Positions 8,361 through 29,629 of a stretch of DNA of 29,817 nt are shown here, one piece after another; the first letter of the stretch is position 1; the number at the start of each line of letters is the position of its first letter. Source of the stretch: Patescibacteria group bacterium (GTDB taxonomy: Bacteria; Patescibacteriota; Minisyncoccia; 2-02-FULL-40-12; IGHO2-01-FULL-4-A); the NCBI GenBank assembly GCA_038057175.1, contig JBBUDS010000001.1, positions 1-29,817 on the forward strand, read 5' to 3'. The notes under the pieces were generated by a model. That model was given only the letters and a program-made list of their open reading frames with translations, ran no database searches and had not been told where the DNA came from. Made by a program: the position numbers and the translations under genes.

Positions 8361-8401
8361 ATTTGATTTTTTGATATTTTTTTGTCATAATTTACTTACT
8401 T

Positions 8402-8675: not shown

Positions 8676-8845
8676 TCGACGAACGAAGGTGATTGACGAG
8701 CGAAGGCGAGGAAATGCTGAGATCAGCAGATCGAATGTAGGAGGTACTGAGCGCAGCGACTGAGCGAGAGCGAAGAAGTGCTGAGCTTAGAAAAGCGAAC
8801 GTGTAGCGCGAATGTGTTTTGGTCGGGAGTAACGTCTAATAAAAT

Positions 8846-9367: not shown

Positions 9368-9373
9368 AATAAT

Positions 9374-9940
9374 ATGCCATACTCAAGCTTTGTTTTCGAT
9401 AGATCTATAGAAGAAATTATTCGACTATTAAAACCAGAGGCTCTTTTTGATCTTGGTGCCGGTGCCGGAAAATATGGCGAGTTAGTAAGAAATATAAATC
9501 CATCCATAAAATTAACAGCTGTTGAAATTGAGGTGGACTATGTAAAAAAGTTTAATCTTTCTTCAATTTATGATGAAGTATGGAACATTTCTGCTACGGA
9601 TTTAATTAATCCAAAATACTACGATGTAACTTTTGATGTAGTTATGATCGGCGATATTATTGAGCATTTGAAAAAATCAGATGGTATTGATTTACTAAAT
9701 TTTTTAATTTATAGGTGTCGCTGGATTATCCTTGAATTTCCCTATCGCTATATCCAAAATTCTGTTGACGGATATTATTCAGAGGCTCATATATCAGTAT
9801 GGACTAAAGATGACTTTGTCTCGTTTGAAAGGACTCAGCTATATGCGAGAGGCACCCAATGCTTAGTCGTACTTCGCGGGTATCTTGAAAACAAGATTTC
9901 TATTGCAGATATTGAGGTAGCAATTAATAAAAATGAATAA
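9374..9940 (+). CDS. Class I SAM-dependent methyltransferase
   Basis: LFDLGAGAGKYG motif I; FDVVMIGDIIEHL. Confidence 0.85.
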   Translation: MPYSSFVFDRSIEEIIRLLKPEALFDLGAGAGKYGELVRNINPSIKLTAVEIEVDYVKKFNLSSIYDEVWNISATDLINPKYYDVTFDVVMIGDIIEHLKKSDGIDLLNFLIYRCRWIILEFPYRYIQNSVDGYYSEAHISVWTKDDFVSFERTQLYARGTQCLVVLRGYLENKISIADIEVAINKNE

Positions 9941-11701: not shown

Positions 11702-11706
11702 CTATC

Positions 11707-12726
11707 ATGGCGATTTATAAATGTGCATGGTTTATAAATTTTACTGGTATTGGAAATGGAGTAACCATTGCACCTCTACTTCGATGTTTTGAAAAAAGTT
11801 ATCCGACAACGGAATATTTTCATACTGAAAATGAAATTCTTTCAAACGGGTGGTTTGTTGAAAAAGCTAGGTTGAGCAAGTTGAAAGGATTTAGTCCAAT
11901 TGCGTGGAGACGGTTTAATAAAGAAGACTGGGACAAGATCGTTGATTTTGTAAATCAAAATCAGATTGATTTGATTGTTAACTTACGCAATGAGGGCCCA
12001 AGGTATGATACTGGTTATTATGAATTTAAGAAATTTTTAAAGCAGGATCGTGATATTATTTTTTGGGATTTGGATTTTAATATTATTGAAAATAGAAAAA
12101 AGCAGGAAAATTTGACCGGTGATCTTTTGAAAATGTTTCAGCAGCAAAATGTTAGTATTTCTTATTACGAACCTCGGTGGCTCGCTACTAATAGTGAAGA
12201 CAAAAGTGAGGTTGGTTTTGGTATGGCTGCTAGTCAGAAAAATAAACGTTGGCCAACACATAAATGGGTTGAACTAGCACAAAAAATACTAAAAAATACT
12301 AACATCAAAATAATTTTATTTCATGGCTTGTCACAGGAGGAAGTAGATGGAGCAGTAGAAGTACAAAAAGTTATTGGATTGAGTAGGTGCGAAATGATAA
12401 ATCACCAGGAGCTTAACCGTATTGCAATTATGCTGGGAAAGTTAAAATGTTTCATCTCAAATGATTCAGGTCTTTTGCATATTTGTTCCGCGACTGGAAC
12501 TCCTACGGTCGGTTTATACACAAACACCGATCCTGATATTTGGGCACCTTACGATAAAGCAAATTTTTTATACTGCACTAACATTTTTATGGAAAAATGT
12601 CTTGCGCGCAAAATATATTGTGGAAACTGTTTTCATTATTATGGTCCTTGTCCGGCAATTATTAAGTATGGCGACAGTATCAGCCCTAAGCAGGTATTTG
12701 AACTAGTTAAGGAAATAATTGCCTAA
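11707..12726 (+). CDS. Glycosyltransferase family 9 (heptosyltransferase-like)
   Basis: GIGNGV..APLLR; AASQKNKRWP; ISNDSGLLHICSATGTPTVGLY; Cys-rich tail. Confidence 0.85.
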   Translation: MAIYKCAWFINFTGIGNGVTIAPLLRCFEKSYPTTEYFHTENEILSNGWFVEKARLSKLKGFSPIAWRRFNKEDWDKIVDFVNQNQIDLIVNLRNEGPRYDTGYYEFKKFLKQDRDIIFWDLDFNIIENRKKQENLTGDLLKMFQQQNVSISYYEPRWLATNSEDKSEVGFGMAASQKNKRWPTHKWVELAQKILKNTNIKIILFHGLSQEEVDGAVEVQKVIGLSRCEMINHQELNRIAIMLGKLKCFISNDSGLLHICSATGTPTVGLYTNTDPDIWAPYDKANFLYCTNIFMEKCLARKIYCGNCFHYYGPCPAIIKYGDSISPKQVFELVKEIIA

Positions 12727-14039: not shown

Positions 14040-14780
14040 ATGCCAACCAATGCAGATAGAGCAAATAAAATTAGGTTAGGATTTTCAACGGGATGTCTTT
14101 ATAAGTCTGAACCCAGCATAATTCGACGCTTAGAGGTGATAAGGAATATCGGTTGTCGTACGGTTGAACTGGGATTCGTAAAATTGGATGGTTTTTGGGG
14201 TGAGATAGATCAGGTAATTTCACAACCGAAATGCTTGGATGACTTTGATTATGTAAGTCTGCATGCACCAGTTGCGCCATATGGTTTCGATCGTGATTCG
14301 ATGAATATTTTTAGAAAGATTGCCCAGCTACATCTTATTCGGAAATTAAATTTGGTAGTTTTTCATCCGGATGAGGTAAAAGGTTTTGAATTTTTTCCTA
14401 GCTGGGCGAATAGTATAGATTTGCCATTCGCTTTTGAAAATATGGATAACCGAAAGGGATCATATAAAAACCTACTCGATATGCAGGGCTTGTCATGCTG
14501 TGTCTATAGATTCCGGATGGTCTTAGATGTAAATCATGCCTTTTCCAACGATCCGACGATGGGGCTCGCGCGGGATTTTCATCGGTGTTTTAAGGGATCT
14601 ATTGTTCAGACGCATCTTAGCGGATATAAGAATGGCCATGTACCTCTGTTTGAAACCAAGCAAATCGAAATCATAGAGGGCGTACGAAACATAAAAAAGC
14701 CCATTATTATTGAGAGTGTTTTGGAGTCCTATCAGTTATCGCAAGAAAGAAATTATATTTTAGAGGTTCTTGAAAAATAA
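14040..14780 (+). CDS. Xylose-isomerase-like / AP-endonuclease-2 TIM-barrel metalloenzyme
   Basis: LGFSTG, VEL, SLHAP, VVFHP, FENMD, LDVNHA, THLS, HVPL, IIES metal-ligand pattern. RBS AGGAG. Confidence 0.8.
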   Translation: MPTNADRANKIRLGFSTGCLYKSEPSIIRRLEVIRNIGCRTVELGFVKLDGFWGEIDQVISQPKCLDDFDYVSLHAPVAPYGFDRDSMNIFRKIAQLHLIRKLNLVVFHPDEVKGFEFFPSWANSIDLPFAFENMDNRKGSYKNLLDMQGLSCCVYRFRMVLDVNHAFSNDPTMGLARDFHRCFKGSIVQTHLSGYKNGHVPLFETKQIEIIEGVRNIKKPIIIESVLESYQLSQERNYILEVLEK

Positions 14781-14793
14781 AATTGATAAAACT

Positions 14794-14820
14794 AAAACCG
14801 AAGTATACTCGGTTTTATTT
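14794..14820 (+). terminator. Intrinsic terminator
   Basis: AAAACCGA-AGTATAC-TCGGTTTT plus T-rich tail. Confidence 0.6.
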
Positions 14821-14881
14821 TAACTAGTGAGGAGCAAAATGGAAATTTATTTCCATTTTATCCGAACGAAGTTAAAAGTGG

Positions 14882-14960
14882 GAATACTACGCCGCTTGCG
14901 GCGTTATCAAGAGAAACGAAGTTTCCTTTGATACCTCGCGGCTTGCCGCGAGGAGTATTC
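14882..14960. repeat. Cloverleaf palindromic element (REP/IS200-end-like)
   Basis: GAATACT/AGTATTC closes three hairpins: ACGCCGC-TT-GCGGCGT, TATCAA..GAAAC-GAA-GTTTC..TTGATA and CCTCGCGGC-TT-GCCGCGAGG. Confidence 0.7.
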
Positions 14961-14995
14961 ATTTTGGCTAAATTTTTGATATAATAAGCATAAAT

Positions 14996-15553
14996 ATGGA
15001 TTCACTTATTTTTTATATTTTTCTTTTTGTTCATCTTACTTCTTTGATCGTTGGCTTCGGCGCTGTTTTGGTTACCGATTTTTTTGGCCTACTGTGGTTG
15101 CGTAAAAAAATAACCATGGAATTCATGGTTAATATTTCTGGTCAAACTAAAAAATTGATTTGGCTGGGTTGGTTTGGATTGGTATTTTCCGGTATATTTT
15201 TGATAGCTCAAAAGGGATATATAGACAACCTTACTCAGATAAAATTATTTTTTGTGGCCATGATTGGGGTTAATGGTATTTTTCTTCATAAAATCCACAA
15301 GATGTTGGATAGATTTGGTGATAATGATTTACCCCCTCTTTTCAAATTTCGTATTGCTTTGGCAAGTATAGTTTCTCAAGTTGGTTGGTGGGGAGCTATA
15401 TTTATCGGTTTTATTCATCGCCATTGGAGACACGACATTCCTTGGCCGGAAAACCCATGGTTTTATATGTTATTAATTGCCGGCACTTTTATGGTACTCT
15501 TGCTTATTGGCGAATTAATTTTAGGCCACAATAGAAATAATAATCAGAATTGA
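14996..15553 (+). CDS. Integral membrane protein of unknown function
   Basis: About five hydrophobic helices; FLFVHLTSLIVGFGAV start. Confidence 0.75.
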   Translation: MDSLIFYIFLFVHLTSLIVGFGAVLVTDFFGLLWLRKKITMEFMVNISGQTKKLIWLGWFGLVFSGIFLIAQKGYIDNLTQIKLFFVAMIGVNGIFLHKIHKMLDRFGDNDLPPLFKFRIALASIVSQVGWWGAIFIGFIHRHWRHDIPWPENPWFYMLLIAGTFMVLLLIGELILGHNRNNNQN

Positions 15554-16467: not shown

Positions 16468-17694
16468 TTATGCTAGTTGAAGCTTTGAATTCGGGCGATA
16501 CCAGCGTCCAACTTTTCCACATGGTTGTCCGTTCACCTTGACAATGTCAGCTGTAAAATCCTGATTGCCTTTAAGAAGTGAACTCCCGCAGCCGTAAGCA
16601 TCAACCGGCACCTTTTTGTTCTCAAAGTAATTTATTTTTTCTTTAGTAAATCCGCCGGATACCACTATTTTTACATCATCGTGGCCATTCCGATCCAGTA
16701 CGCTTCGTACGTTATTAACTAACATAGGATTAACTCCGGTTGGCTTTTCGCTACCCATTTGATTGTTGCGATCTATGGATAAATCAACCATGTTTTCAGA
16801 TGTGTCTAGTCGAACGCCCCATAGCTTCAAACCTCTTTCCTTGAAGGTATTTGCGACAGAAAGCGCCGTGGTAACGCAATCATTTTTGAAGTCAACCAGA
16901 GAAATACAGGGTTTATCTGGATATTCACTTGCTAACGCCAGAGTTGCTTCTACGGTGTCGCCATGGAAGCAGGCAATCAATGCATGCGGCATGGTGCCAA
17001 GGCCTTTGGTACCCCACCATTCACCCATACTATTGGTGGCAACTCCTTTAATTCCGCCACACATTGCTGCGTAGCCATCGCCGGTTTGAGTTGTGTAATG
17101 ATCAAACCGATCAGCAAAGAAAAGAATCGGTTTTCCATTAGCCGCTTTAACTACATTAGAAACGTTGGTAGCGATTAACGTTCGTCTTGCCAGTATGCCG
17201 AGGTATACTGATTCGAGATGAGCAAAATATTGTGGCAATCCGTTGATCGTCATGACCGTCTCCCACGGACCAATCTTATCGCCGTCGTTTAACGCCATGA
17301 TTTCTAATTCATCAGATTTATCTACCCACAATTGGTAAAGCTCCATTTCAAGTTGCACCGTTTCTTTTAGTGTTTTTTCAATGCCGTGATAATCCTTTTT
17401 GATGTAGAGGACCGAAATTAATCTTTTTTGCTCTTTTAGTTTGTTAAAAATACGATTTGCGCGATTTTGATCTTTAAAAAATCCGCTGCAAAGCTTAAGA
17501 ACGGCAATGGCTTCATCGGTTCCGCAGATAACCGCATCATTTTTTTGGAAAATTTGCATTGTAACCTTTTCGGAGTAACTTCTGTTGGTTAGTATATGTT
17601 TTTCATTACAAAAGTAATCGGCACTATAATGACCAATCCTTATATCTTGTATGGGTATGCCAAATGTTTCAGCCGGTAATCTTTTATTTGCCAT
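16468..17694 (-). CDS. pncB: Nicotinate phosphoribosyltransferase (type II PRTase)
   Basis: MQIFQK, HLESVYLGILARRT, FFADRFDH, GTMPHALIA, SLVDFKND, WGVRLDTS, IVVSGGF, DFTADIV. Coupled to the nicotinamidase gene. Confidence 0.85.
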   Translation of the reverse strand: MANKRLPAETFGIPIQDIRIGHYSADYFCNEKHILTNRSYSEKVTMQIFQKNDAVICGTDEAIAVLKLCSGFFKDQNRANRIFNKLKEQKRLISVLYIKKDYHGIEKTLKETVQLEMELYQLWVDKSDELEIMALNDGDKIGPWETVMTINGLPQYFAHLESVYLGILARRTLIATNVSNVVKAANGKPILFFADRFDHYTTQTGDGYAAMCGGIKGVATNSMGEWWGTKGLGTMPHALIACFHGDTVEATLALASEYPDKPCISLVDFKNDCVTTALSVANTFKERGLKLWGVRLDTSENMVDLSIDRNNQMGSEKPTGVNPMLVNNVRSVLDRNGHDDVKIVVSGGFTKEKINYFENKKVPVDAYGCGSSLLKGNQDFTADIVKVNGQPCGKVGRWYRPNSKLQLA

Positions 17695-18295
17695 TAATGA
17701 TCTCCTTTACACTTGTAATTATAGCTCCAGCTTTTTTCATTTCGTCTATGGCTTTTTGTTCGTCGCCGGGATTAGTATTTATGGCGAGGCAGGCATCAAG
17801 TGCAAGATAAACTTTGTATTTTTCCAGCTTGCAAGCGGTTAGCACTCCTGCTTTCACGCAGTAATTAGTTGCTATTCCCCAAAACACTATTTTTGTAACT
17901 TTATTTTTATCCAGAACTTCCCGTGTTGTTTTATTGTTTTTTGTTTTACCTTCAAACGGGTCGTACCCATGTTGTGTTTTTTCTGTGCCTTTATAAAGTA
18001 TGATTGAGCCAGGCGATATATTTAGTCCGGATAAAAACTCAGCATCCCATGTGTAGGCGATTCCATGTGGCGGCCAAGGACCAATGGGTTGGAAGTGATC
18101 AGAATCAGGTGGATGCCAATCTGCTGAAAATATTATTAATGAGCCAGCTCTTTTGGCATGAGAGACCAATTTATTACCTTGTTTAAGTATTTTTTTAGGA
18201 GATCCTACGTATAGTCCTCCCTGTGAATGACCAAAGCAATTTTGTAGATCAACGCCGAATATTGCGCAATCTTTAAAATTAAATCTAACACTCAT
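17684..18295 (-). CDS. pncA: Nicotinamidase (isochorismatase family)
   Basis: Catalytic Asp (GVDLQNCF), DWHPPDSDHF, WPPH, Lys (YKG), Cys (GIATNYCV). Confidence 0.9.
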   Translation of the reverse strand: MSVRFNFKDCAIFGVDLQNCFGHSQGGLYVGSPKKILKQGNKLVSHAKRAGSLIIFSADWHPPDSDHFQPIGPWPPHGIAYTWDAEFLSGLNISPGSIILYKGTEKTQHGYDPFEGKTKNNKTTREVLDKNKVTKIVFWGIATNYCVKAGVLTACKLEKYKVYLALDACLAINTNPGDEQKAIDEMKKAGAIITSVKEIINGK

Positions 18296-18837
18296 ATTTT
18301 ACCTCTTTTAATTTTGGTAATGCCAGTTTTTGTTTGAAGTATTTGAAATAATTTTTTATGGCTTGGCCAACCTATTTCCGGCGGGTTTTTAATATTAAAC
18401 CACGCAATTTCCTGATTTTCTTTCGGGTCATTATTTTTAATTTTACCTTGGGTTGTTACCCAATAGAAAAATAGAAAATGTCCCGGACTTCTTGGATCTT
18501 CATTAGACTGAATGAATTTGATAAACGTCGCTTTCTTAACGATAAGGCCGACTTCTTGTCTAATCTCTCTCTTTAAGGCATCTATGGGACTCTCGCCGTA
18601 CTCTACGAATCCAGCTGGGAATCCCCAGGTATTTTTATGTGGTTCGCGATTGCGTTTTACAAGCAACACCTTATTTTTTCTAAATATTAAACCAACCGAA
18701 GCTTGACCAACAGATGGATGATGCGTCCAATTACAATATGTGCAAACTTTTTTTTGTACGCCATCTATTTTTAGAGTCGTTAATCTGGAACTGCAATATG
18801 GGCAAAAGATATAATTGGATTCAATAATTTTTGTCAT
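18292..18837 (-). CDS. NUDIX hydrolase with N-terminal zinc ribbon
   Basis: FCPYC...CTYC; Nudix box GFVEYGESPIDALKREIRQEVGL. ATG at 18837 has a GGAGGA RBS (the track uses a longer TTG start at 18915). Confidence 0.9.
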   Translation of the reverse strand: MTKIIESNYIFCPYCSSRLTTLKIDGVQKKVCTYCNWTHHPSVGQASVGLIFRKNKVLLVKRNREPHKNTWGFPAGFVEYGESPIDALKREIRQEVGLIVKKATFIKFIQSNEDPRSPGHFLFFYWVTTQGKIKNNDPKENQEIAWFNIKNPPEIGWPSHKKLFQILQTKTGITKIKRGKI

Positions 18838-18886
18838 TATTCCTCCCGGAGTTTCTGTAAAAATTTTAAAGTTCTTAAGCTCTAAG

Positions 18887-18952
18887 ATAATAGCATACCG
18901 TTTAGCGTAAGTCAATTTTTTAATTGACTTACGCCACGTTTTCTGTTATTAC
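18887..18952. promoter_or_regulatory. Back-to-back divergent promoters built on a 13-bp inverted repeat
   Basis: GCGTAAGTCAATT-TTTT-AATTGACTTACGC (18905-18934). Each arm gives TTGACT with a 17 bp spacer to TGn-TATTAC (+) or TGn-TATTAT (-). Confidence 0.75.
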
Positions 18953-18990: not shown

Positions 18991-21483
18991 ATGAATAACC
19001 TAGCAGGATTAAAGGTTTCTTTGTGTCAAATGCCGGTTGTTGCTGGTAGGCCAGATCTAAATACCGCCTACATTAAAAATGAAATAAAATCTGCGGCAAG
19101 TCGCGGATCTGATATTATTATTTTTCCTGAAATGGCAGTGTCTGGCTATGTTCTGGGTGATAAATTCGAAGACGAAAGATTTGCGGTAGATGTTAATAAA
19201 CATAACAGGTTGATCTGTGAGGCGTCTGATGTGAGCTTGTCCGATACAGAAGGCAAGATCGCTATTATTTTTGGTAGTTATACAATTGATTCCAGAAAGA
19301 GTGGTCGTGATGGACGAACGCGTAAGCATAACATAGCAATCGTTGCACAGGGCGGAGAATTTATTGGTAAGACCATAAAAACTAACAATCCCGAATACAG
19401 TATTTTTGATGACGATAGGCACTTCTATTCGATGACGAATTTAATACTCGAAGATAGTAGTCTGGGAAATGCTGAGGAATTGAACCTAGATGATTACTTC
19501 AAGACGTTTCCCGTTGAAACAAGATTAGGCATTATCACCGTCGGAGTAATTATCTGTGAGGATGCGTGGTGGAGGGATTATCCATATAGCCCCGGTAAGA
19601 TTCTTGCAGAGAAGGGGATTGATTTGCTCGTGATTATAATGTCTTCGCCTTGGACTTGGCAGAAAAGGCGTAAGCGCCATCAGATTATTAAGGAGCTTGC
19701 AGTGTCGTGCAGAGATGCCAGTTGTCGAGTACCGATTGTTGCGGTGGGCAATACTGGTGTTCAAAATAATGTTAAGAATCTGATTATTTTTGACGGCTTT
19801 GCAGCTAGCTACAATGAAGATGGCGAGCTGTTATATGAGGCAGAGCCGTATGCCGAGCAAACTTTTGATGTAGTGCTTAATAAAGATATGACGCGATTGC
19901 CGAATGAGGATACGGATGATTCAAAAGAATTATTTGACGCTCTAAATTATGCGGGAAGGAAGTATGTAGAGAGCCTGGCACCCTTAAATAGGAAGATAGT
20001 CATAGGAATTAGTGGTGGAATTGACTCAAGTGCCAGTGCGGCATTTTGGGCTAATGTTGTAGGGCCAAAAAATGTCTATGGCATAAGTATGCCCGGACCA
20101 TTTACAAGTGATGAAACCAAGGCGCTTGGAGTCGAGCTCGCTGGTAACTTAGGGATCAATTTCGAAGTTATACCGGTTACCGATGTTGCGGATTCGATCG
20201 CTCAAAAGATTGGCATAGAAAGAGGTACCGATGCTTATGGAAATATTCTATCGCGTGTTCGTAGAGAGATCCTATCAGCAAAGGCAGAAAAAGTTGGCGG
20301 CGTTTTTACTTGTAATGCAAATAAAGTTGAATCTGCCTTTGGATACACAACTCGATACGGTGATAATGCGGGGTTTTTGACGATATTTGGTGACTGTCTA
20401 AAAAGAGAAGTTTATCAGATCGGTGATTATATGAATCGAATTGTTTACAGTCGTGAGGTGATACCGTTAAGATGCTTTACTATAAGACCAACAGCCGAAC
20501 TTAAAAATAAACAAAAAGATCCGTTCTATTATGGTAATCTCGAGGGCTATAATTATCACGATCAATTAACTCGTGCTTGGACAGAGTTTAGATGGGATCC
20601 AGAAATGACCATTGAGCATTATATAAAGGGTACATTAGAGTCGGAATTTAAATTAAACAAAGGACATCTTGCCTTGTTGTTTTCTACGCCACACGAATTC
20701 GTGAAAGATTTGGAGAGGTGTTGGCGGTTGTGGCATGTAGCCGTTTCTAAGCGAGGTGAGGGACCGCCTATACCAAGAGTTAGCAGGAGATCGTTTGGTT
20801 TCGATTTGCGTGAGTCAATGATGTCGCCCAATCTAACACTCAGATATCATGACTTAAAAGTTCTATCTTTAGCCAGACCAATCAAACGGAGACGCGTAGT
20901 TATATTTGGTGGTAGTTTTAATCCTGCATCTAGACACCATATTTTGTTAGCGCAAAGATTATCAAAGGAATTCGATCTGGTTGTTGTTGTTCCTTGTAGT
21001 GGCGGACGCAAGGATAAAACACTTAGTATGGTTTCTGATGCCGATAGAGAGGGGATGTGCAAATTAGCATTTTTTGATCTAGATAAAATTAGACTTGATA
21101 TGTTTGATTTGAGCGGTGGGTTGTTCACTCCAACATGGAAAATGCAGGAAATTTATCAGAATGAATTTCCCGATGCACAAATTTGGCATGTCGTCGGTGG
21201 TGATATTATCGCCGGCGGTCGTGATAATAACTCAGAGATACATAGATTATGGGACAAGGGTGTTGAGATTTGGGAAGGTCTTAATTTTGCTGTTATAACT
21301 CGCCCGGGCTACGTGGTGGAAAGACAAGATTTGCCGCCATCAACCAAGCTCATTGAAGTTGATGGGGTGGTTGGCTCTGGTACTTTGATTCGTCGGTTAA
21401 TTGCTGAAGGTAAGTCAATCGCTCGTTTAGTGACGCCAGAAGTAGCGGAATATATTAAAAATAATAAATTATATATAAAATAA
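18991..21483 (+). CDS. nadE: Glutamine-dependent NAD+ synthetase fused to a C-terminal NadD-like nucleotidyltransferase
   Basis: Nitrilase domain IIFPEM...ICEDAW; synthetase GISGGIDSS, GYTTRYGD, PTAEL; C-terminal FGGSFNP..HH, VGGD, RPGY, SGTLIR. Confidence 0.88.
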   Translation: MNNLAGLKVSLCQMPVVAGRPDLNTAYIKNEIKSAASRGSDIIIFPEMAVSGYVLGDKFEDERFAVDVNKHNRLICEASDVSLSDTEGKIAIIFGSYTIDSRKSGRDGRTRKHNIAIVAQGGEFIGKTIKTNNPEYSIFDDDRHFYSMTNLILEDSSLGNAEELNLDDYFKTFPVETRLGIITVGVIICEDAWWRDYPYSPGKILAEKGIDLLVIIMSSPWTWQKRRKRHQIIKELAVSCRDASCRVPIVAVGNTGVQNNVKNLIIFDGFAASYNEDGELLYEAEPYAEQTFDVVLNKDMTRLPNEDTDDSKELFDALNYAGRKYVESLAPLNRKIVIGISGGIDSSASAAFWANVVGPKNVYGISMPGPFTSDETKALGVELAGNLGINFEVIPVTDVADSIAQKIGIERGTDAYGNILSRVRREILSAKAEKVGGVFTCNANKVESAFGYTTRYGDNAGFLTIFGDCLKREVYQIGDYMNRIVYSREVIPLRCFTIRPTAELKNKQKDPFYYGNLEGYNYHDQLTRAWTEFRWDPEMTIEHYIKGTLESEFKLNKGHLALLFSTPHEFVKDLERCWRLWHVAVSKRGEGPPIPRVSRRSFGFDLRESMMSPNLTLRYHDLKVLSLARPIKRRRVVIFGGSFNPASRHHILLAQRLSKEFDLVVVVPCSGGRKDKTLSMVSDADREGMCKLAFFDLDKIRLDMFDLSGGLFTPTWKMQEIYQNEFPDAQIWHVVGGDIIAGGRDNNSEIHRLWDKGVEIWEGLNFAVITRPGYVVERQDLPPSTKLIEVDGVVGSGTLIRRLIAEGKSIARLVTPEVAEYIKNNKLYIK

Positions 21484-21507: not shown

Positions 21508-23478
21508 TTATTTAATTTTAAATTGAGGATAACCGCTTAAGTCAACGATACGACGTTCTGTGATTTGCTCGAATAGCGTGTCTATATTTTCAATAAGGTT
21601 TCGTTTTCGGATGTCAATTAAGAGTTTTACTATATTCGGTGGCAATAATTCTCTCGATGATGATGCGAGGAGACTAACAAGCGTCATGTAGTCTATATCT
21701 GTTTGACTTGAGCTAGGGATTGAATCTTCAATCGCTTTCATTAGCGCTGGTCCATCTATAATTATTTCATTTTCTTCTTGTCGGTCAGTGCTTGCAAAAT
21801 TTAGAGATGATAATGTTATAGCTTCGATGTCTGCGCCAGATCGGCCATCTACCAACTTCGCATATTTAGAAAAATCAATAATAGATGTTTTTATGGCGTA
21901 TCGCTTGAACATGACTTTAAAAATTGCTGGTATTTCTTCAACTGATGGCATGGGAAGCAGTATTCGTTTATCGCTTCTGCCACTGCGCATCAGTGCCGCA
22001 TCCATTCTATCTGGCCTATTGGTGCAGTTAATTATAATTACCTTACCGCGTATTTTGGGGTCAGATAAGAATGTCATCCATGATCTCATCAACCTTTCAG
22101 ATACACCAGAATCTCCCTTTGGAGAGTTGCGGTCAGCTTCACCCAAATCAGCTTCGTCGTTCATGATAACGACTGGGACTAGAGACCATAAACCACTTAA
22201 AAGTTTTTCCATTCTGGCTTCTGATTCACCAACCCACATTGATCTGATGTTCTTAATTTTAATAAAGTGGAAGCCAGCTTCTTTGGCTAATGCCTCAACG
22301 AATGCAGTCTTGCCTGTTCCGGGGGGGCCCATGAGAGTTACGCCCATTGGTACGCGTCTAATGTCGCCACTTTTTATAGCTCGAATGACTAATTTGAAAT
22401 ATTTTTTCAGGTGTTCCATTCCGCCAATATCTTCAAGCCCTTTATCAGCATTGACCACTTCCATGACGTCACTATATTCGTTAGACAATATTTGGTATTT
22501 TTTTTCTTTTACGGTTTTTAGATTTAGCGGAACGCTGGTTTTTTTTGTTTGAATCAGTAGTTCTTTGATTTGATTAAGGCCAAGCCCTTGTGTGGCGATG
22601 GTCAGAGTGTTGATGTCTAGTGTCTCGTCCAGTAGATACAGTTCAGAGAAGTTTGCCAACTTATTACGCAGTGCATCTATCTGATCGGCAACATACCGAC
22701 GATTCGTGTCATTTTTTTGTTTTGGAAGTTTTATATTCCAGTCCCTGAGTCTAGCAAGAATATTTTTTTGTTCTCCAGTGCCCTGAGTGTATGTTCTAAT
22801 AAAATTCTTTCTTTCTTCTTCGGTCGGTTTTACAATAAGGGAGGTTTGTATTTCATTTCCGCTTTGGCGCAACTCATTAGAAATTTTGGAAGCTTGATCG
22901 GTTACGAGTAATACGATGCTCTTCTTTTCTCTAATGGTTTCGCTCTGGCTCCAATTACGGAGTCTTTCGGTGGCTATCCTATCTGCTGGTGATAAAGACA
23001 CTCCGCCGCCACTGTTTGGAGCGATAAAGTGTGCGGAGTTTAATATTATGGCGACTTCAGATTCTTTTCGTAAAACTTTATCCATTAGTTCCAGACATAC
23101 TAACAGTTCGGTTGGTAGGGGCTGTCTGTTAGATAGGTCGGCTCTTGCGGCGGCAACCGGATCATTTGCGGGTGAATTTGGCTTTACAATGTCTGCGGCT
23201 TTTTTAAATTTTGTTTCCATTTCTGACGTTAGAAACGTAATGCCTGAGGCAATATTGTAGAAGATTACAATTTTAGTATCTTTCAAAATTCTTCGCCAAA
23301 ACTCCCTAAATTTTATGTAGAATTTGTTATTTTGATTATCATCTGGATTTAAAACCAAACAATTGATATCGCCGTGCAAGATAAATACAGAACTTGTCCC
23401 CGCTTCGTATGGTTCAAGAATATGATTTGTGAACCAAGATGGTAATTTTTCTCTCGAAATGTTTTTTGCTAAATTCAT
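21508..23478 (-). CDS. AAA+ ATPase (classic clade, Ycf46/CDC48-like) with a degenerate N-terminal AAA-like domain
   Basis: DIGGMEHLK, GPPGTGKT, MWVGESE, MNDEAD, TNRPDRMDAALMRSGRSD, GRSGADIE. N-terminal FILHGDIN region lacks an intact Walker A. Confidence 0.88.
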   Translation of the reverse strand: MNLAKNISREKLPSWFTNHILEPYEAGTSSVFILHGDINCLVLNPDDNQNNKFYIKFREFWRRILKDTKIVIFYNIASGITFLTSEMETKFKKAADIVKPNSPANDPVAAARADLSNRQPLPTELLVCLELMDKVLRKESEVAIILNSAHFIAPNSGGGVSLSPADRIATERLRNWSQSETIREKKSIVLLVTDQASKISNELRQSGNEIQTSLIVKPTEEERKNFIRTYTQGTGEQKNILARLRDWNIKLPKQKNDTNRRYVADQIDALRNKLANFSELYLLDETLDINTLTIATQGLGLNQIKELLIQTKKTSVPLNLKTVKEKKYQILSNEYSDVMEVVNADKGLEDIGGMEHLKKYFKLVIRAIKSGDIRRVPMGVTLMGPPGTGKTAFVEALAKEAGFHFIKIKNIRSMWVGESEARMEKLLSGLWSLVPVVIMNDEADLGEADRNSPKGDSGVSERLMRSWMTFLSDPKIRGKVIIINCTNRPDRMDAALMRSGRSDKRILLPMPSVEEIPAIFKVMFKRYAIKTSIIDFSKYAKLVDGRSGADIEAITLSSLNFASTDRQEENEIIIDGPALMKAIEDSIPSSSQTDIDYMTLVSLLASSSRELLPPNIVKLLIDIRKRNLIENIDTLFEQITERRIVDLSGYPQFKIK

Positions 23479-23488: not shown

Positions 23489-24199
23489 TTATCCTATCTC
23501 GTTATGACCATGATGGTGCGAGTGATTGTGTGTATGACTATGACCGGTGTGTTCTTCAACACTGCCGGGTATTGGTTGTCCGTTAACGGGTGAGTCGGGT
23601 AGTGCAATTTTTACTCCTAACCTTTGTGCTAATGCGATAAATTTTATTTTTTCTTTTTCAAGCTCTGATTTACTAGTGAAGTGTTCAAATACTATTTCGC
23701 CATTGCTGTCGGGATTTTTTGATATGCGTATGTATTTACAGGGATGCGACTTGCCTTCTTCTTCGGCAACTAAGGTTAGTGCTTTAGTACTATTTTCCCC
23801 GGGATTTAAAATATTTGCCTTATAGCCAAGTAGCCGGGTTACTATTTTTAAAACCTCCATTTGCCAATGATTAATTACGCGGTTTGTTGTTTTTTCAGCT
23901 TCATTTTTTTCAGAACTGTTTGTATAAAATGATTCGGCAATAATGTTGCCGTCTTCACTAATCGAGAAATTGATACTTTCCGATGGCTGCAGTTCTAGTG
24001 TTTTTTTGAGGGCTTCTTCCAGTAATGGTTTAATATTTAACTTTTGTATCCAGCTTAGAAACACCTGATCGTTTACTCCTAATTTTTCCAGTAAATCCTG
24101 ATCTATACTAGGAGAGGGCATCTTTTTCTTAAATCTTTGAGGTGTAGGCTGGGGTATACGAATAGGGGCGTAGGTTTTATAACCAATATTGCAAGGCAT
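23489..24199 (-). CDS. Hypothetical protein, N-terminal MPC and His-rich C-terminus; co-transcribed with the AAA ATPase
   Basis: 10-bp gap to the ATPase; tail HTGHSHTHNHSHHHGH. Confidence 0.8.
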   Translation of the reverse strand: MPCNIGYKTYAPIRIPQPTPQRFKKKMPSPSIDQDLLEKLGVNDQVFLSWIQKLNIKPLLEEALKKTLELQPSESINFSISEDGNIIAESFYTNSSEKNEAEKTTNRVINHWQMEVLKIVTRLLGYKANILNPGENSTKALTLVAEEEGKSHPCKYIRISKNPDSNGEIVFEHFTSKSELEKEKIKFIALAQRLGVKIALPDSPVNGQPIPGSVEEHTGHSHTHNHSHHHGHNEIG

Positions 24200-24390: not shown

Positions 24391-25590
24391 ATGAATGAAA
24401 AAGCTGTTATGGAAGTTTGTAGAAAAATTACAGAAGCCGCCAATCCAGAAGAAATATTTGGGAGTCTTGGCGGTAAGGGCCAGAATAGAGGCGATAAGTT
24501 AAAAGCTCTCGAAAGAGAGTTTAATAAATTTAAACAAGTTCTTGCTATAGATCTCCCATCTGTTAGTCAGGCATTACTTGAAAAAGTTGACGAGACAAGA
24601 GTTGTTCTTGATGATCTGTATGAATGGGCGCGGACGATTGTCGTTGGCGAAGATTTGTCGGAAAGAGAATCCGTTGAAGATTCGGAAGAGACCGAGTCTA
24701 GACCAGCCGGTCTATTTAAAGAAATTACGATTCAAACTAAAAAACGCCCCTATTATATTACCGGTAGCCTCGCTAGTGGCGATTTAGCTTCGGTGTATAA
24801 AGGATATTACCTTGAGGGCACAACACCTATTGATGTTGCAATTAAGATTATTGATGACCCTGCCGATAACTCGTTTGCCAAGAAGGAAATTGATGCGTTG
24901 GGAATATTGCATGCCGAACCAAACAACGAAGGCAAGCAGTTAAAGCATTTACCGCGGTCAGTAGATCAATTTATAACTACCGATAATCAGCAAGGTAATA
25001 TACTGACCTATCTTGACGGATATACCTTAGAACAAGTTAGGGCAAAATATAAAGGAGGCATTGATCGTAAGCACATGGTTTGGATGCTTAGCCGTGGACT
25101 TAGCCTTTTAGGATACGCGCACAGTAAGGGTGTAATTCATGGCAACATTACTCCATCTAATTGGATGATTCGACCAATGGATCACAATGCGTGGATTATA
25201 GATTGGGGTTATTCCGTTATTGATCACATTAATAAGGGTGCTAAATTTTCGGTTTTTGATCCCGATTTCAGTGCCCCAGAGATAAAGCAAAGATCAACTT
25301 TATTATCGGTATCGAAATGTTCCGATCAGGCAGGGCTAATGTATCTATATGCTCTGTTTTCCGCGGATATTTACTCTGTAGGTAAATGCATGATATACAT
25401 ACTTGGCGGTGATATAGGGACCGACAAGATGCCGGATAGTGTTGAGAAACCATTGCAGAGATTTTTGGACGGCCTAGTTAATAAGAGCCCACTTCAACGT
25501 CCACGTAATGCGTGGGAAGTTCATTCACAGTTAAGGAAATTAATTGTATCCCTTTGGGGAGAAAGAAAATTTTTAGAATTTAAAATGTAA
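24391..25590 (+). CDS. Hanks-type Ser/Thr kinase-fold protein, probable pseudokinase, with N-terminal helical domain
   Basis: LASGDLASVYKG Gly-loop, VAIK, KEIDAL, HGNITPSN (catalytic Asp replaced by Asn), DWG, FSAPE, ADIYSVG. Confidence 0.85.
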   Translation: MNEKAVMEVCRKITEAANPEEIFGSLGGKGQNRGDKLKALEREFNKFKQVLAIDLPSVSQALLEKVDETRVVLDDLYEWARTIVVGEDLSERESVEDSEETESRPAGLFKEITIQTKKRPYYITGSLASGDLASVYKGYYLEGTTPIDVAIKIIDDPADNSFAKKEIDALGILHAEPNNEGKQLKHLPRSVDQFITTDNQQGNILTYLDGYTLEQVRAKYKGGIDRKHMVWMLSRGLSLLGYAHSKGVIHGNITPSNWMIRPMDHNAWIIDWGYSVIDHINKGAKFSVFDPDFSAPEIKQRSTLLSVSKCSDQAGLMYLYALFSADIYSVGKCMIYILGGDIGTDKMPDSVEKPLQRFLDGLVNKSPLQRPRNAWEVHSQLRKLIVSLWGERKFLEFKM

Positions 25591-25604: not shown

Positions 25605-27074
25605 ATGGGTGGTGGAAATTACAATGTTGATGTTGCAGAGAGATTTAGAGAGTCTACTACTGAGGATACTATATTTAGAAGCCAAGGTTTATCGGCTAGA
25701 GAAAAGTGTGATCCAAGCTTAAATATAAAAGGTAAGATACGGGAATGCTGTGATTCGTTGGAACATCCAAACACTACGCCTATTGTTGTTGTTATGGATT
25801 TTACCTCATCTCGTGGTGATGATGCTAAGGTAATTTTTGCTAAAGCACCAATGTTTTTTGGACAGATGAAAATGCGTAATTATGTGCCCGATCCTGAAAT
25901 TTGTTGGATGGGCATAGGTGATGCAACGTGTGACAAGGCACCACTTCAAGTTGCCCAATTTGAGTCTGATAATAAGTTGGATGATGAATTGGCCAAGATG
26001 TGGCTCGAGGGTGGCGGCGGAGGAACGGGTCAAGAATCTTATGAATTAGCCGCGTACGCCATTGTTAAAAAAATGAAGCTTGATGCAGTTACGAAGCGCA
26101 ACAAGAAAGCCCTTGTATTCTTCCTGATTGATGAGGGATTTTATCCCGTTATTTCAAAATCTCAGGTGAAGAAAGTTTTTGGTGATGACTTGTCAGCCGA
26201 TATCCCTTCTGAACAGATTTTTGCCGAACTGAATAATATGGCTGACGTCTTTGTTATTTATCCAAAGAAATCATGGCAAGAAAGAAAGGCCGATATTGAT
26301 GTCGAGATGCGTGAGCGCCTTGAGCAGGCTGGCGGAAGATTCCGAGATGTTGATATTAGGGCTTCATTGCGTTGGGATACCTATGATGATCTCGACCTCC
26401 ATGTTGTTTGCCCCGGAGGTGAAGTCTGGTATGCAAATAAAAAATGTTCTAACGGGGAATTAGACGTTGATCGAAATGCCGGTGGTCCTCAAACAAGAAA
26501 ACCGGTAGAAAACATCCGTTGGGCGAAGGGCGAAGCGCCTAAAGGAAGGTATAAAGTTTTTGTTCAAAATTATGCTTTTCATGAGGATGAAAGAAATCCA
26601 ATACCGTTTCTTGTCGAGCTGGAGGTAAACGGTAAAATTCAAAAATTTGAAGGGGTCTCTGCTTCTAAGAAAGAAAATGGTTCGAGAAGTAATATTACCG
26701 CGTTTGAATTTAATTATGATCCTGCCGAGAGACAGATAAGTTCAGACGAATCCGATCTTTATAAGGGTTACGATGATGCGTTAATTAAAGCCCAGTGGGC
26801 GAATGTGATTCCAGCGGATAATATTCTTGAGATCGATGATCCTAAGGTGATTATTGATGTGATGCTCGGTGCCGTTGCGATTAATTCCGGTTCGAGCCTC
26901 GATGGTTATTTGGTTGACATGGAGGGCCGCGGTCAGACTGCAAGGCGGCGTGAAGAGACAACCGCCGCTCTCTCTGGATTGGCGGATAAGGCCAATACCG
27001 TTAAGGTTGATGTGGGCAAGAGGTTGCCCAAGATTACGACAAAGAAAAAGACTAGTAAGATAAAGAGGCTGTAA
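25605..27074 (+). CDS. vWA-domain protein with an inserted YfaP/DUF2135-like domain
   Basis: MGGG start, MIDAS-like DFTSS, GIGDATCD, LQVAQFE, LEGGGGG..QESYELA, FLIDE. Insert DDLDLHVVCP...LDVDRN...VENIRW...GRYKVFVQNY. Confidence 0.85.
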   Translation: MGGGNYNVDVAERFRESTTEDTIFRSQGLSAREKCDPSLNIKGKIRECCDSLEHPNTTPIVVVMDFTSSRGDDAKVIFAKAPMFFGQMKMRNYVPDPEICWMGIGDATCDKAPLQVAQFESDNKLDDELAKMWLEGGGGGTGQESYELAAYAIVKKMKLDAVTKRNKKALVFFLIDEGFYPVISKSQVKKVFGDDLSADIPSEQIFAELNNMADVFVIYPKKSWQERKADIDVEMRERLEQAGGRFRDVDIRASLRWDTYDDLDLHVVCPGGEVWYANKKCSNGELDVDRNAGGPQTRKPVENIRWAKGEAPKGRYKVFVQNYAFHEDERNPIPFLVELEVNGKIQKFEGVSASKKENGSRSNITAFEFNYDPAERQISSDESDLYKGYDDALIKAQWANVIPADNILEIDDPKVIIDVMLGAVAINSGSSLDGYLVDMEGRGQTARRREETTAALSGLADKANTVKVDVGKRLPKITTKKKTSKIKRL

Positions 27075-27090: not shown

Positions 27091-27114
27091 AACTCTGCGA
27101 CTGCGGAGTTTTTT
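27091..27114 (+). terminator. Intrinsic terminator
   Basis: AACTCTGC-GACT-GCGGAGTT plus T-run. Confidence 0.7.
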
Positions 27115-27217
27115 ATTGTTTGAATTCATGAACGGTCAGTTGGTCGTATATTTGACAAATATAGTATTATCATGTATTGATTAGATAAATTTGCTCATTA
27201 AAATACGGAGATAAATA

Positions 27218-28162
27218 ATGTTTATTTCAACTCTACCGCCGATTCATATGGAGGGCCTAATGGAGGAAATGATTGCGCATTCTTTAGTTGACGGCGTTCG
27301 TTATAATATTGGCGGCTATTCTGCCTATAAACCTAAAGAAACTCTTGAGCGTATCCTTGGTTTAACCGAGGAATATAAAAAGAAGTTTTGGCTAGATCTT
27401 AAGGGTCGGCAATTACGTATATCTCGTTGGACAATGGGAAGTTTGGGTAAGGCTACTCTCAATCATAAAATTCAGGTTGACACACCTGCACGCGTGTATT
27501 TTAGGGGTAACGATTGGTCGGAAATAAAGGTTGTTAATGGCGATACTATTTTTGTTGACCCTTTGCCTAAAAATGCTGTCGGTGAAGGTCAGGCTATAAA
27601 TATTCATGGCGATAATCTAAAAATTTTTGGTTACTTAACCGACGATGATAGGGAATATATTGATGCTGCCGCTAAGTTAGGCATGCACAGCTTCATGCTT
27701 TCTTTTGTTGAGGGCCTTGAGGACGCAGAGGAATTTGAGCAAGCTTTGGGGTATGGATACAGGGGTATGGGTGTTGACGAAGTGTTTAAGATTGAATCGC
27801 CGAAGGGGATGGAATTTGTACGCCAACTAGGAAGCAGTGGCATCCCATCTGAATTATATACGCTTATGGCGGCACGTGATGATTGGTTTACGAATACTAT
27901 TCCCAGACCGCAGATTCTTAAAGATTTGGAAGATATGGTAAAAATTGATCCTAAGGCCATAGTGGCATCACATATATTTGGCGGGCTAGAGGGGGCAGGC
28001 ATGGTTACTATGGCAGATCTGTCAGACCTATATCTTATGCGCCATTTTGGTTATAAAAATTTTATGTTATCGGATGGCATATCCAAACGACATTTCAAGA
28101 AGGCCGTGGAGGCTTGGGAAGAATTTTTAGATTATTTTCCGATGGAGGAGCGAAATGAGTAG
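27218..28162 (+). CDS. Divergent pyruvate-kinase-like protein (A and B domains, no C domain)
   Basis: VRYN, LDLKGRQLR, MLSFVE, FKIES, MAARDD, FMLSD appear in order against the PK motifs RLN, LDTKGPEIR, LSFV, KIE, MVARGD, VMLSG. Confidence 0.75.
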   Translation: MFISTLPPIHMEGLMEEMIAHSLVDGVRYNIGGYSAYKPKETLERILGLTEEYKKKFWLDLKGRQLRISRWTMGSLGKATLNHKIQVDTPARVYFRGNDWSEIKVVNGDTIFVDPLPKNAVGEGQAINIHGDNLKIFGYLTDDDREYIDAAAKLGMHSFMLSFVEGLEDAEEFEQALGYGYRGMGVDEVFKIESPKGMEFVRQLGSSGIPSELYTLMAARDDWFTNTIPRPQILKDLEDMVKIDPKAIVASHIFGGLEGAGMVTMADLSDLYLMRHFGYKNFMLSDGISKRHFKKAVEAWEEFLDYFPMEERNE

Positions 28163-29567
28163 GAGAGCGTTTTTAATTGCCGGTATTGGTTATGGCGATG
28201 AAGGCAAGGGTAGTATTGTTGACTACCTTAGTTTTAAACACAAGCCGCACACCATCATACGTTTTAATGGTGGTTCACAAGCGATGCATCATGTTGTTAA
28301 ACCGGATGGAACGGTTCATGGTTTTCGACAAATAGGTTCCGGAATGTTTGCTAATCCAAGCGTACGCACCTATCTTTCTAAATTTATGCTGGTGGACCCG
28401 TTTTTTATTCACGAAGAGATAAACGAATTATCGGTAGAAAAAAACATCAAATATTCATTTGGACAGGTTATAGTTGATCGCGAGTGTGTAGTGATCACAC
28501 CATTTCATAGATTAGTTGGACAAATGCGTGAGTTAGTTAGGGACGATAAACGGATTGGCAGTTGTGGTTGCGGCGTTGGAGAGGCGATGTTTGATTACAA
28601 TTTAGTAGGAGATGGCGTTCTTCTAGCGGGCGATTTGGCGGATAAACAAAAAACACTATATAAGCTAAGACGGTTACTGATTTCAAAAATTGATATCGCA
28701 GAACAGTTGGTTGACGTAGAGTATTCGCGCAGATTTACCAAGAGACTTCTGCAAGAAAAATTATTGGAGTTGTATGATTATCGCAAGTGGTTAGATAGGT
28801 TAACTCAAAAATATCTTGATTTTTTTAAATTCGGATTTTTAAAGTTTGGAGACGAGAAGAAGCTTAAGCATATTCTGAGTAAAAATGGTACTGTGATTTT
28901 TGAAGGAGCTCAGGGTGCATTACTAGATCCGCGTTATGGATTTGCTCCTTATGTTACAAAAACACGAATGAGTTTTGAAAATGCAAACACTCTACTGGAT
29001 GAATCTGGCTATAATGGTGATTGTACCAGAATTGGCGTAATGCGTGGTTACAGTACTCGTCATGGTCCCGGACCTTTTATAACAGAAGATCCTAGATTTA
29101 ATAGGCGTGTTTCAGAATTACACAATGTAATGAATGCATGGCAGGGTCCGTTTAGAATTGGTTGGCCTGACATTGTCGCATTGAAATACGGAATAGATAT
29201 AGTTGGTGGCGTCGACTACTTGGCTGTTACCAGCATGGATCGCATCAAGGATTTTAATAAAATACGCGTTTGTGAAGCATATGATACTGACCTTGTCAGT
29301 ACAAACCATATTTTAAATAAATATTTTGAATTGCATGCTGGCAGTAAGATTAATAGGATAACAAGAATTAAGGTTTTGCCTGAAGGTAAGGTTGGGAAAG
29401 GCGAACTTACAAAATTGCTCAAGAGATGCAGGCCAGTTTATAAAAATATATATCATCATGATTGTAGATATGTGGATTACTTAAGGCATAGTCTTGGAGT
29501 TGAAGTAGGAATTATATCTCATGGCCCGACACGTAAAGATAAAATTGAGTTGATCCCCGCATGTTAA
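28155..29567 (+). CDS. Divergent adenylosuccinate-synthetase-like (PurA-fold) GTP-dependent ligase
   Basis: GYGDEGKG, RFNGGSQAMH, EGAQGALLD, RHGPGPFITE, RIGWPD, SHGPTR. Overlaps the upstream stop. Confidence 0.85.
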   Translation: MSRRAFLIAGIGYGDEGKGSIVDYLSFKHKPHTIIRFNGGSQAMHHVVKPDGTVHGFRQIGSGMFANPSVRTYLSKFMLVDPFFIHEEINELSVEKNIKYSFGQVIVDRECVVITPFHRLVGQMRELVRDDKRIGSCGCGVGEAMFDYNLVGDGVLLAGDLADKQKTLYKLRRLLISKIDIAEQLVDVEYSRRFTKRLLQEKLLELYDYRKWLDRLTQKYLDFFKFGFLKFGDEKKLKHILSKNGTVIFEGAQGALLDPRYGFAPYVTKTRMSFENANTLLDESGYNGDCTRIGVMRGYSTRHGPGPFITEDPRFNRRVSELHNVMNAWQGPFRIGWPDIVALKYGIDIVGGVDYLAVTSMDRIKDFNKIRVCEAYDTDLVSTNHILNKYFELHAGSKINRITRIKVLPEGKVGKGELTKLLKRCRPVYKNIYHHDCRYVDYLRHSLGVEVGIISHGPTRKDKIELIPAC

Positions 29568-29600: not shown

Positions 29601-29629
29601 TTGACATTTGGGGGAGTTTTTGCTATTAT
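29601..29629 (+). promoter_or_regulatory. Sigma70 promoter
   Basis: TTGACA, 17 bp spacer, TGC-TATTAT (extended -10). Confidence 0.7.

Follow-up and report, generated by a model that had tools for sequence, protein, structure and literature searches.

A mini pyruvate kinase and a PurA-like enzyme in a conserved pseudokinase-vWA cassette of bacteria and large phages

In this work we analysed a stretch of 29,817 nucleotides from a Patescibacteria group bacterium (contig JBBUDS010000001.1 of assembly GCA_038057175.1), called the window below, which is the entire contig 1 of the 695-kb genome of an ultra-small bacterium, assembled in 77 contigs and 88% complete. Near its end, two overlapping genes on the forward strand encode a pyruvate kinase-like protein of 314 amino acids (PK-like; 27218-28162), which we call a mini pyruvate kinase, and a protein of 470 amino acids related to the adenylosuccinate synthetase PurA (PurA-like; 28155-29567), which we predict to be a GTP-dependent ligase. 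Both are open reading frame (ORF) calls, identified in the first case by profile and fold matches and in the second by the Pfam family PF00709 and the predicted fold. An earlier note on this DNA had read them as a coupled pair, in which the second enzyme uses an amine other than aspartate or a nucleotide other than IMP and the first recycles its GDP. Our results show that the pair is the enzymatic part of a conserved mobile cassette with the order pseudokinase, von Willebrand factor A (vWA) protein, optional PK-like protein and PurA-like protein, and not a stand-alone two-gene unit. Each enzyme varies a known fold in a new way. The cassette is widespread, being found in bacteria of the candidate phyla radiation (CPR), Chloroflexota, Actinomycetota, Myxococcota and large phages.

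The conservation of gene order carries this conclusion. About 47 of 55 PurA-like loci from isolate genomes and metagenome-assembled genomes (MAGs) have the kinase, vWA and PurA-like genes in this order on the same strand, and most of the exceptions are truncated by a contig end. Among the hosts are Streptomyces, Micromonospora, Actinomadura, Nocardia, Chloroflexota, Variovorax and Planctomycetota. This cassette order was confirmed by phmmer in the Mycobacterium phage Erdmann (gp263-gp266) too, and PurA-like matches were found in at least 239 phage records, of which 201 belong to Mycobacterium phages. In the kinase-like protein of the window (24391-25590, forward strand) the catalytic motif reads HGN. 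All 75 homologues that we compared have the ATP-binding beta3 Lys, but only 3 have the Asp of the HRD motif, which is Ala in 34 and Asn in 32, so that the kinase-like protein of the cassette is a pseudokinase. The vWA protein (25605-27074, forward strand) matches phrog_2971 and phrog_1735 and has an extra C-terminal domain and an intact metal ion-dependent adhesion site (MIDAS), whose D-x-T-x-S motif hardly varies among about 100 homologues. In most loci the vWA gene lies directly 5' of the PurA-like or the PK-like gene. No model of PADLOC-DB 2.0 matches the PK-like, PurA-like or vWA protein, the only matches being generic ones to the kinase and an AAA+ ATPase, and a full-text literature search found no published account of the PurA-like clade, the cassette or a pyruvate kinase without the C domain.

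In PurA chemistry, activation by GTP allows an amine to replace a ring oxygen, and to our knowledge two products of it are known so far, adenylosuccinate and the 2-amino analogue in Z-genome phages. For comparison we used a PurA reference set (EC 6.3.4.4, PF00709, TIGR00184/NF002223; structures 1ADE and 1CG1 from E. coli and 6ZXQ from H. pylori). The PurA-like protein matches PF00709 with 211 bits (cut-off 27) and stays below the equivalog cut-offs of PurA (TIGR00184, 169.5 vs 395.55; NF002223, 176.2 vs 402). The PurZ model NF038379 gives 48.6 bits against a cut-off of 300 and matches residues 7-147 only, and the PurZ structure 7ODX is found in a PDB search with an E value of 8e-4. The AlphaFold model of the protein, with a predicted local distance difference test (pLDDT) score of 91, has the adenylosuccinate synthetase fold, and its top Foldseek matches are all PurA structures, with template modelling (TM) scores of 0.74-0.82. 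Alignment to solved PurA structures shows that the P-loop GDEGKG is kept together with its catalytic Asp (D15, invariant in homologues); with the low PurZ score, this bears out the view of the earlier note that the enzyme is not PurZ.

The same alignment recovers every substitution that the earlier note had listed (NAWQGPFR, GGSQAMHH and GSCGCG): GGSQAMHH replaces the canonical GG(A/H)NAGHT, GSCGCGVG replaces GTTGRGIG and NAWQGPFRIGW replaces TTTGRPRRVGW. We judged conservation in the 120 nearest homologues and in 102 loci. Invariant or nearly so among the 120 are D15, K18, Q42, H45, S136, C137 (113/120), H303, W329, Q330, F333 and R334. What is shared with PurA is the fold and much of the machinery, namely the Asp of GDxGKG (D15) with K18, the catalytic His (H45), the Gln of EGAQG (Q253), the Thr of YVT (T268), R334, the GW-D motif and the guanine-specificity Asp and Ser (D362, invariant, and S455, nearly so). 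In contrast, the ligands of the IMP 5'-phosphate are altered: Asn has become Q42, Thr has become C137, two Arg have become G152 and L156, and T268 alone is kept. A Val is replaced by H303, and GTTG reads GSCG. The aspartate loop TTGRxR has turned into A-W-Q-G-x-F, in which W329 and Q330 never vary and F333 hardly does; all aspartate ligands are replaced, and the replacements are themselves conserved. H55, F57 and Q59 are new invariant residues. The roles in E. coli PurA (aspartate loop, IMP-phosphate and dimer Arg, guanine Asp and Ser) were mapped through the motifs. As the replacement residues are near-invariant in the 120 homologues, a new function is indicated and not decay.

These residues suggest what the enzyme might do. 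The retained P-loop Asp, His, Gln, Thr, GW-D motif and guanine Asp and Ser make it likely that GTP-driven activation of a carbonyl oxygen is retained, and since the base-contacting Gln and the catalytic Asp and His are kept, an N-H/C=O (lactam-type) group may still be phosphorylated by GTP. The loss of both Arg and of Thr at the phosphate site points to a less charged or bulkier 5' end, for example the phosphodiester of a dinucleotide or an ADP-ribose-type compound. The pocket of Trp, Gln and Phe might accept ammonia, nicotinamide or another small or aromatic nitrogen nucleophile, or no nucleophile at all. A PurB-type lyase (PF00206), whose absence from the window the earlier note had remarked on, was found neither there nor in the 695-kb genome at its 88% completeness. 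The interpretation as an altered ligase stands in so far as the enzyme is neither PurA nor PurZ and has a rebuilt nucleophile pocket and acceptor site; what it lacked was the cassette and its nicotinamide adenine dinucleotide (NAD) context.

Judged by sequence, the PurA-like proteins are a large third branch of PurA, which keeps the catalytic core, seems to have discarded aspartate and extends over many bacterial phyla and phages. In our tree the clade is monophyletic against a canonical PurA outgroup with a support of 100. Placement inside the canonical PurA clade, which the earlier note had named as a refutation, is not seen. Scores to PF00709 separate the two as well, with 460-570 bits for canonical PurA and 198-242 for the PurA-like clade. 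Of 6 genomes with the PurA-like protein, 4 also encode a canonical PurA, namely Leptolinea and one MAG each of Myxococcota, Phycisphaerales and Sungbacteria, and in one Anaerolineae locus the two genes are 3 kb apart. The PurA-like protein is the only copy in one other CPR genome and in the present one, where no second PF00709 gene, hence no canonical PurA, was found in the 88% that is covered. Within the tree, PK-linked members form a basal grade and PK-free members, mostly from Actinomycetota, a derived clade; PK linkage requires 4-5 label changes compared with about 37 in shuffles. PK-linked and PK-free sets were sampled differently, so the tree indicates co-inheritance and not its direction. 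The two sets differ at G10/D, E16/A, D147/Y and W337/H; none of these residues is in the GTP site, and they merely place the PK-linked proteins nearer to canonical PurA. In a 243-kb IMG/VR contig (L166, 10876-12144; identical to L127) we also observed a PurA-like gene split by an in-frame TAG into ORFs of 233 and 186 amino acids. Reading TAG as Gln gives a single ORF of 422 amino acids; either the gene has suffered a nonsense mutation or the phage recodes TAG.

The partner enzyme is an even more divergent relative of a textbook family, pyruvate kinase (EC 2.7.1.40; PF00224 plus PF02887). It remains below the cut-offs of both Pfam and NCBIfam (PF00224, 19 bits vs 30; TIGR01064, 27.9 vs 306.4), but a profile of 29 PK-like members has PDB matches exclusively to pyruvate kinases (E 1e-13). 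The AlphaFold model (pLDDT 93.5) consists of an A domain (TIM barrel) and a short B domain (lid), and the best 50 of at least 500 Foldseek matches are all pyruvate kinases, with TM scores of 0.74-0.76, E values of 1e-15 to 1e-17 and about 340 aligned columns. The protein thus shares the A and B domain fold and the catalytic set of pyruvate kinase, but has a shorter lid and is found in a vWA cassette instead of glycolysis. It stops at 314 amino acids, after the barrel, and lacks the C-terminal allosteric domain PF02887; consequently it has no allosteric site and no C-C tetramer contact.

Catalytic residues of pyruvate kinase are invariant in 29 diverse PK-like members: R28 and N30 (RxN), D60, K62 and R67 (D60-x-K62-G-R-Q-L-R67 for DxKGPEIR), K191 and E193 (KIEN), R220 and D222 (ARGD), S251 (the Thr of ATQ) and S285 (MLSGE). 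Their counterparts in the rabbit muscle enzyme are presumably R73, N75, D113, R120, K270, E272, R294, D296, T328 (here Ser) and S362. The T/P residues of the nucleotide pocket are retained too. Changes in the active site comprise RGD to RDD (the Gly being D221), SGE to SDG and Ser to Gly at the K+ site, and two residues, D221 and D286, are new acidic ones. In the lid W71, N82, F95-R96-G97, D114, P117, G122, G124-Q125 and N128 are invariant. The family comprises 149 clusters at 50% identity (E<=1e-30), nearly all of 290-350 and typically about 300 amino acids. Its distribution is patchy: among 401 genomes from the phylum of the window, the gene was found in only 3, always within the cassette, and the commonest taxon of its automatic ESM Atlas cluster is Uroviricota. 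We searched for fusions of PK-like to PurA-like proteins and found none. The only fusion partners are PP-loop ATP-pyrophosphatases, which follow an N-terminal PK-like part in P0241 (569 amino acids) and P0318 (568 amino acids). These two proteins are 29% identical, and the PP-loop part is an NAD synthase (NadE) in one and QueC-like in the other; the two fusions are independent.

How tightly is the mini pyruvate kinase tied to the PurA-like enzyme? We found 84 loci through the PK-like protein, 67 of them with room downstream, and counted a neighbour when it lay within 300 nt. The downstream neighbour is PurA-like in 47 of these 67, and upstream we find vWA in 43 loci and NadE-NadD in 4. Overall, the PK-like gene hardly ever occurs outside the cassette, and it mostly overlaps the PurA-like start. 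In all 59 same-strand adjacent pairs the gap between the two genes is at most 53 nt, and 12 of the 59 overlap by 1, 4 or 8 nt when the first start is taken. The coupling that the earlier note had proposed is therefore real and conserved. Variants are also seen, in which a second vWA gene separates both enzymes or the PK-like gene comes straight after NadE-NadD.

In the window itself the overlap is 8 nt long (ATGAGTAG, 28155-28162), as had been noted before and as the ORF coordinates confirm. The PurA-like gene starts with the ATG at 28155 inside ATGAGTAG, the stop codon TAG of the PK-like gene is at 28160-28162, and a ribosome-binding site GGAGGAG (28144-28150, forward strand) lies within the 3' end of the PK-like gene, 4 nt from the ATG. 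Just 3' of the vWA stop (27074) there is a terminator-like hairpin with a T run (27091-27110, forward strand; 8-bp stem with 4 GC pairs, tail TTTTATTGTT), which suggests that the pair is transcribed separately from the kinase-vWA pair in the window. A promoter-like site 5' of the PK-like start (TTGATT-16-TAAAAT, 27177-27204, forward strand) is a consensus match only and weak, as such matches are not commoner here than in shuffled sequence. With the overlap and its ribosome-binding site, the hairpin upstream and this weak promoter-like site, the pair looks like a bicistronic unit in this genome. A perfect 8+1+8 palindrome in the intergenic region (TATATTTGACAAATATA, 27147-27163) is a candidate operator; it is present in a single copy in the window, no link to other promoters of the window was found, and it lacks statistical weight, with at least one match at 3 mismatches in 39 of 100 shuffles. 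The gene pair does not differ in GC content from the remaining contig. Behind the pair lies the best promoter-like site of this region (TTGACA-17-TATTAT with TG, 29601-29629), which is followed by a ribosome-binding site and an ATG at 29676. The ORF that starts there is very GC-rich and Arg/Lys-rich and runs off the contig end, whereas the remaining contig has 34-43% GC.

Genes of NAD salvage surround the cassette. The window encodes proteins like PncB (16468-17694), PncA (17684-18295) and the Nudix protein NudC (18292-18915), all on the reverse strand, and a triple fusion of glutaminase (carbon-nitrogen hydrolase), NadE and NadD-like parts (18991-21483, forward strand). Close homologues of this whole fusion adjoin the cassette in 19 loci, and homologues of NadE-NadD, PncA and Nudix proteins recur beside it in many. 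Further neighbours are NAPRT, a PRPP-synthetase-like protein and NAD kinase. Immediately upstream of the cassette, loci of Streptomyces and Streptosporangium encode NrtR, with a Nudix domain and the NrtR winged helix. NrtR is an ADP-ribose-sensing repressor of NAD genes (PMC2330246), and Rodionov et al. 2008 described NrtR-controlled genes nrtX-nrtY, of unknown function, in Streptomyces, Frankia, Proteus and Hahella (PMC2330246), which might conceivably correspond to genes of the cassette.

Other neighbours recur as well. An AAA+ ATPase (21508-23478) and its partner of 236 amino acids (23489-24199) are encoded on the reverse strand of the window, divergent from the kinase gene, and this pair recurs in 10-11 PK-like loci (for example L086, L105, L109 and L114). 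An AAA+-type variant of the cassette without the kinase has a second vWA paralogue between PK-like and PurA-like (7327-8469 in L109, 11064-12227 in L114). Just 5' of the pseudokinase gene, 24 loci have a P-loop kinase of about 210 amino acids from the PRK/uridine kinase family (L145, 6621-7244), and in 12 loci a protein of about 610 amino acids with a Pol-beta nucleotidyltransferase domain is encoded on the opposite strand after PurA-like (L145, 12320-14149).

We tentatively favour the reading, with confidence that falls somewhat short of even, that the pair are the enzymes of a pseudokinase-vWA-(mini-PK)-PurA-like cassette working within NAD+/ADP-ribose salvage, in which the mini pyruvate kinase feeds the PurA-like enzyme with GTP. 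The PurA-like enzyme would transfer the gamma-phosphate of GTP to a lactam-type oxygen of an acceptor other than plain IMP, most likely a purine-like or NAD/ADP-ribose-derived nucleotide with an esterified phosphate. The activated acceptor might then be handed to a nucleophile other than aspartate in the pocket lined by Trp, Gln and Phe. The mini pyruvate kinase, free of allosteric control, would take a phosphoryl group from phosphoenolpyruvate (PEP) or a closely similar compound and pass it to a nucleoside diphosphate; it could thereby supply the PurA-like enzyme with GTP, remove inhibitory GDP and provide ATP to the neighbouring NadD and NadE steps. The vWA protein and the pseudokinase would be regulators or adaptors. 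GDP is a product of PurA-type enzymes, and pyruvate kinases can phosphorylate it besides ADP. The guanine-reading residues of the PurA-like protein, the translational coupling of the genes and the retained catalytic residues of pyruvate kinase all argue for the regenerator role, and recycling of GDP from PEP is a plausible role of the PK-like protein and the single most likely one. Without the allosteric domain, a pyruvate kinase would be active irrespective of how glycolysis is running.

Several observations weigh against this supply of GTP. The PK-like gene is present in just 2 of the 55 PurA-like loci of the sampled genome collection, and the PP-loop enzymes (NadE or QueC-like) with which PK-like is sometimes coupled or fused release AMP and not a nucleoside diphosphate. 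The 485-kb phage LR745208 has kinase-like (6904-7938), vWA (7973-8935) and PK-like (8953-9867) genes in a row (L176, LR745208.1 124786-143634) without PurA-like; a search of the whole record LR745208.1 gave no PurA-like match, which is weak evidence as the empty search had no positive control. In the PK-like family an invariant Gln (Q125) takes the place of the lid Lys with which pyruvate kinase contacts the transferred phosphate. The present genome has PGK, GAPDH and NDK, so GDP could be recharged by NDK without a pyruvate kinase. No enolase, PPDK/PEP synthase (PEP-utilizer), canonical pyruvate kinase or MurA was found in it; with no other PEP-making or PEP-using enzyme detected there is no visible PEP metabolism, and at 88% completeness these absences are not proven. 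Enolase is also absent from two other CPR genomes with PK-like, whereas a third CPR genome with PK-like (G086) has enolase and canonical pyruvate kinase as well. Two complete genomes of the same class as the window's genome also lack a pyruvate kinase. Just downstream of PK-like in L176 we further observed a Thg1-like gene (11370-12263) and an ADP-ribosylglycohydrolase (14081-15265).

Much of this would be expected if the mini pyruvate kinase were an effector of the pseudokinase-vWA module with a substrate of its own and did not regenerate nucleoside triphosphates. That substrate might be an intermediate of the pathway, or an enol or lactim phosphate different from PEP. The PurA-like protein would then be a second, interchangeable effector, and the adjacency of the genes would reflect a shared module or pathway and not a hand-off of GDP and GTP. 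We regard this as unlikely on balance, yet it deserves serious weight. The phage with kinase, vWA and PK-like genes alone speaks for it, as do the direct coupling of PK-like to NadE-NadD in L104, L105, L108 and L111, the fusions to NadE or QueC-like domains and the lack of detectable PEP metabolism in the host genome, and the many invariant lid residues together with the new acidic D221 and D286 point to a specific ligand. It is less easily reconciled with the PEP, Mg and phosphate ligands and the T/P residues of the nucleotide pocket, which are all retained from pyruvate kinase, with the overlap with the PurA-like start, which is the commonest arrangement by far, and with the way PK-like tracks the PurA-like tree.

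The favoured reading, in which the mini pyruvate kinase feeds the PurA-like enzyme, has a bolder form that we consider a long shot. As a ligase driven by GTP, the PurA-like enzyme might rebuild NAD+ or an adenine nucleotide directly from breakdown products, powered by the mini pyruvate kinase from PEP. For instance, an oxygen of an ADP-ribose-type or hypoxanthine-type nucleotide would be phosphorylated, and nicotinamide or ammonia, bound in the pocket of Trp, Gln and Phe, would displace the phosphate.

The intact MIDAS of the vWA protein and its place as an obligate neighbour raise the question whether the PurA-like enzyme modifies a protein, joining a nucleotide to an amine of the vWA partner or of a client held at the MIDAS, with nucleoside triphosphate from the mini pyruvate kinase. 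The lost small-molecule pocket for aspartate would leave room for such a larger nucleophile, but the NAD salvage context fits metabolite chemistry better, and we think this very improbable. Even less probable in our view is a role in abortive defence or as a toxin, in which the triggered module would exhaust GTP and PEP. Conflict systems often have kinase and vWA sensors, the distribution of the mobile cassette is patchy and an IetA-like AAA+ ATPase lies nearby. Against this, no PADLOC model covers the PK-like, PurA-like or vWA protein, hundreds of lytic phages carry the cassette, and its company consists of NAD-building and not NAD-destroying genes, under NrtR, which switches on salvage. Finally, the housekeeping of a reduced genome, with a divergent genuine adenylosuccinate synthetase and a glycolytic pyruvate kinase, has in its favour that these are the sole PF00709 gene and the sole PK-superfamily gene of the genome, with the GC content of the contig, but it is largely refuted by the loss of all aspartate ligands, the lack of a PurB or an enolase to feed a glycolytic enzyme among the genes found in the genome, scores far under the equivalog cut-offs, the confinement of PK-like to the cassette in 3 of 401 genomes of the phylum, and the occurrence of the same proteins beside canonical PurA in 4 of 6 genomes and beside canonical pyruvate kinase in G086.

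Comparison with known systems underlines what is particular to the cassette. Apart from its missing aspartate loop and altered IMP-phosphate ligands, the PurA-like enzyme differs from PurA in having no PurB partner, in forming a separate clade and in being found always in a vWA cassette. With PurZ and PurZ0 of the phage 2-aminoadenine pathway (NF038379; 7ODX, 6FKO, 7VF6) it shares that it is a phage-borne, retooled enzyme of the PurA family, and PHROGs and some phage records indeed label the family with the PurZ-type name '2-aminooxy adenylosuccinate synthetase'. However, PurZ-type structures show 13-15% identity to it and query-normalised TM scores of 0.47-0.57, lower than those to PurA, and PurZ still uses aspartate, as in the deposited complex with Asp (6TNH), whereas the Asp loop of the PurA-like enzyme is replaced. 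The TerY-P triad, said to have been described by Anantharaman, Iyer and Aravind in 2012, reportedly joins a TerY-type vWA protein, a Ser/Thr kinase and a PP2C phosphatase. It resembles the cassette in pairing a MIDAS vWA protein with a Hanks-type kinase-fold protein in one operon, but we found no PP2C among the scanned ORFs of the window, the cassette kinase is without the catalytic Asp in 72 of 75 homologues, and the cassette carries metabolic enzymes (PurA-like and PK-like) and has the NAD context. The phage NAD+ reconstitution pathways NARP1, NARP2 and NARP3, with the enzymes Adps, Namat, Nampt and NadR/PnuC (bioRxiv 10.1101/2024.02.11.579819; PMC13464706), are likewise common to phages and bacteria and tied to NAD salvage; the cassette in addition lies behind NrtR in actinomycetes. 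No NARP enzyme, however, is a relative of PurA or pyruvate kinase.

With the mini pyruvate kinase, a textbook enzyme is seen in a naturally minimal form that lacks allostery. NAD+/ADP-ribose salvage, to which the cassette is wired, concerns a metabolite that is central to many conflicts between phages and bacteria. If the cassette did rebuild NAD+ or an adenine nucleotide, it would be a fourth route of NAD+ or nucleotide reconstitution, unrelated in sequence to the known ones, common to bacteria and hundreds of large phages and switched on by NrtR. It will be interesting to identify the substrate of the PurA-like enzyme, as this would probably bring to light a new reaction of nucleotides and might also uncover a new response of phages or cells to the destruction of NAD+.

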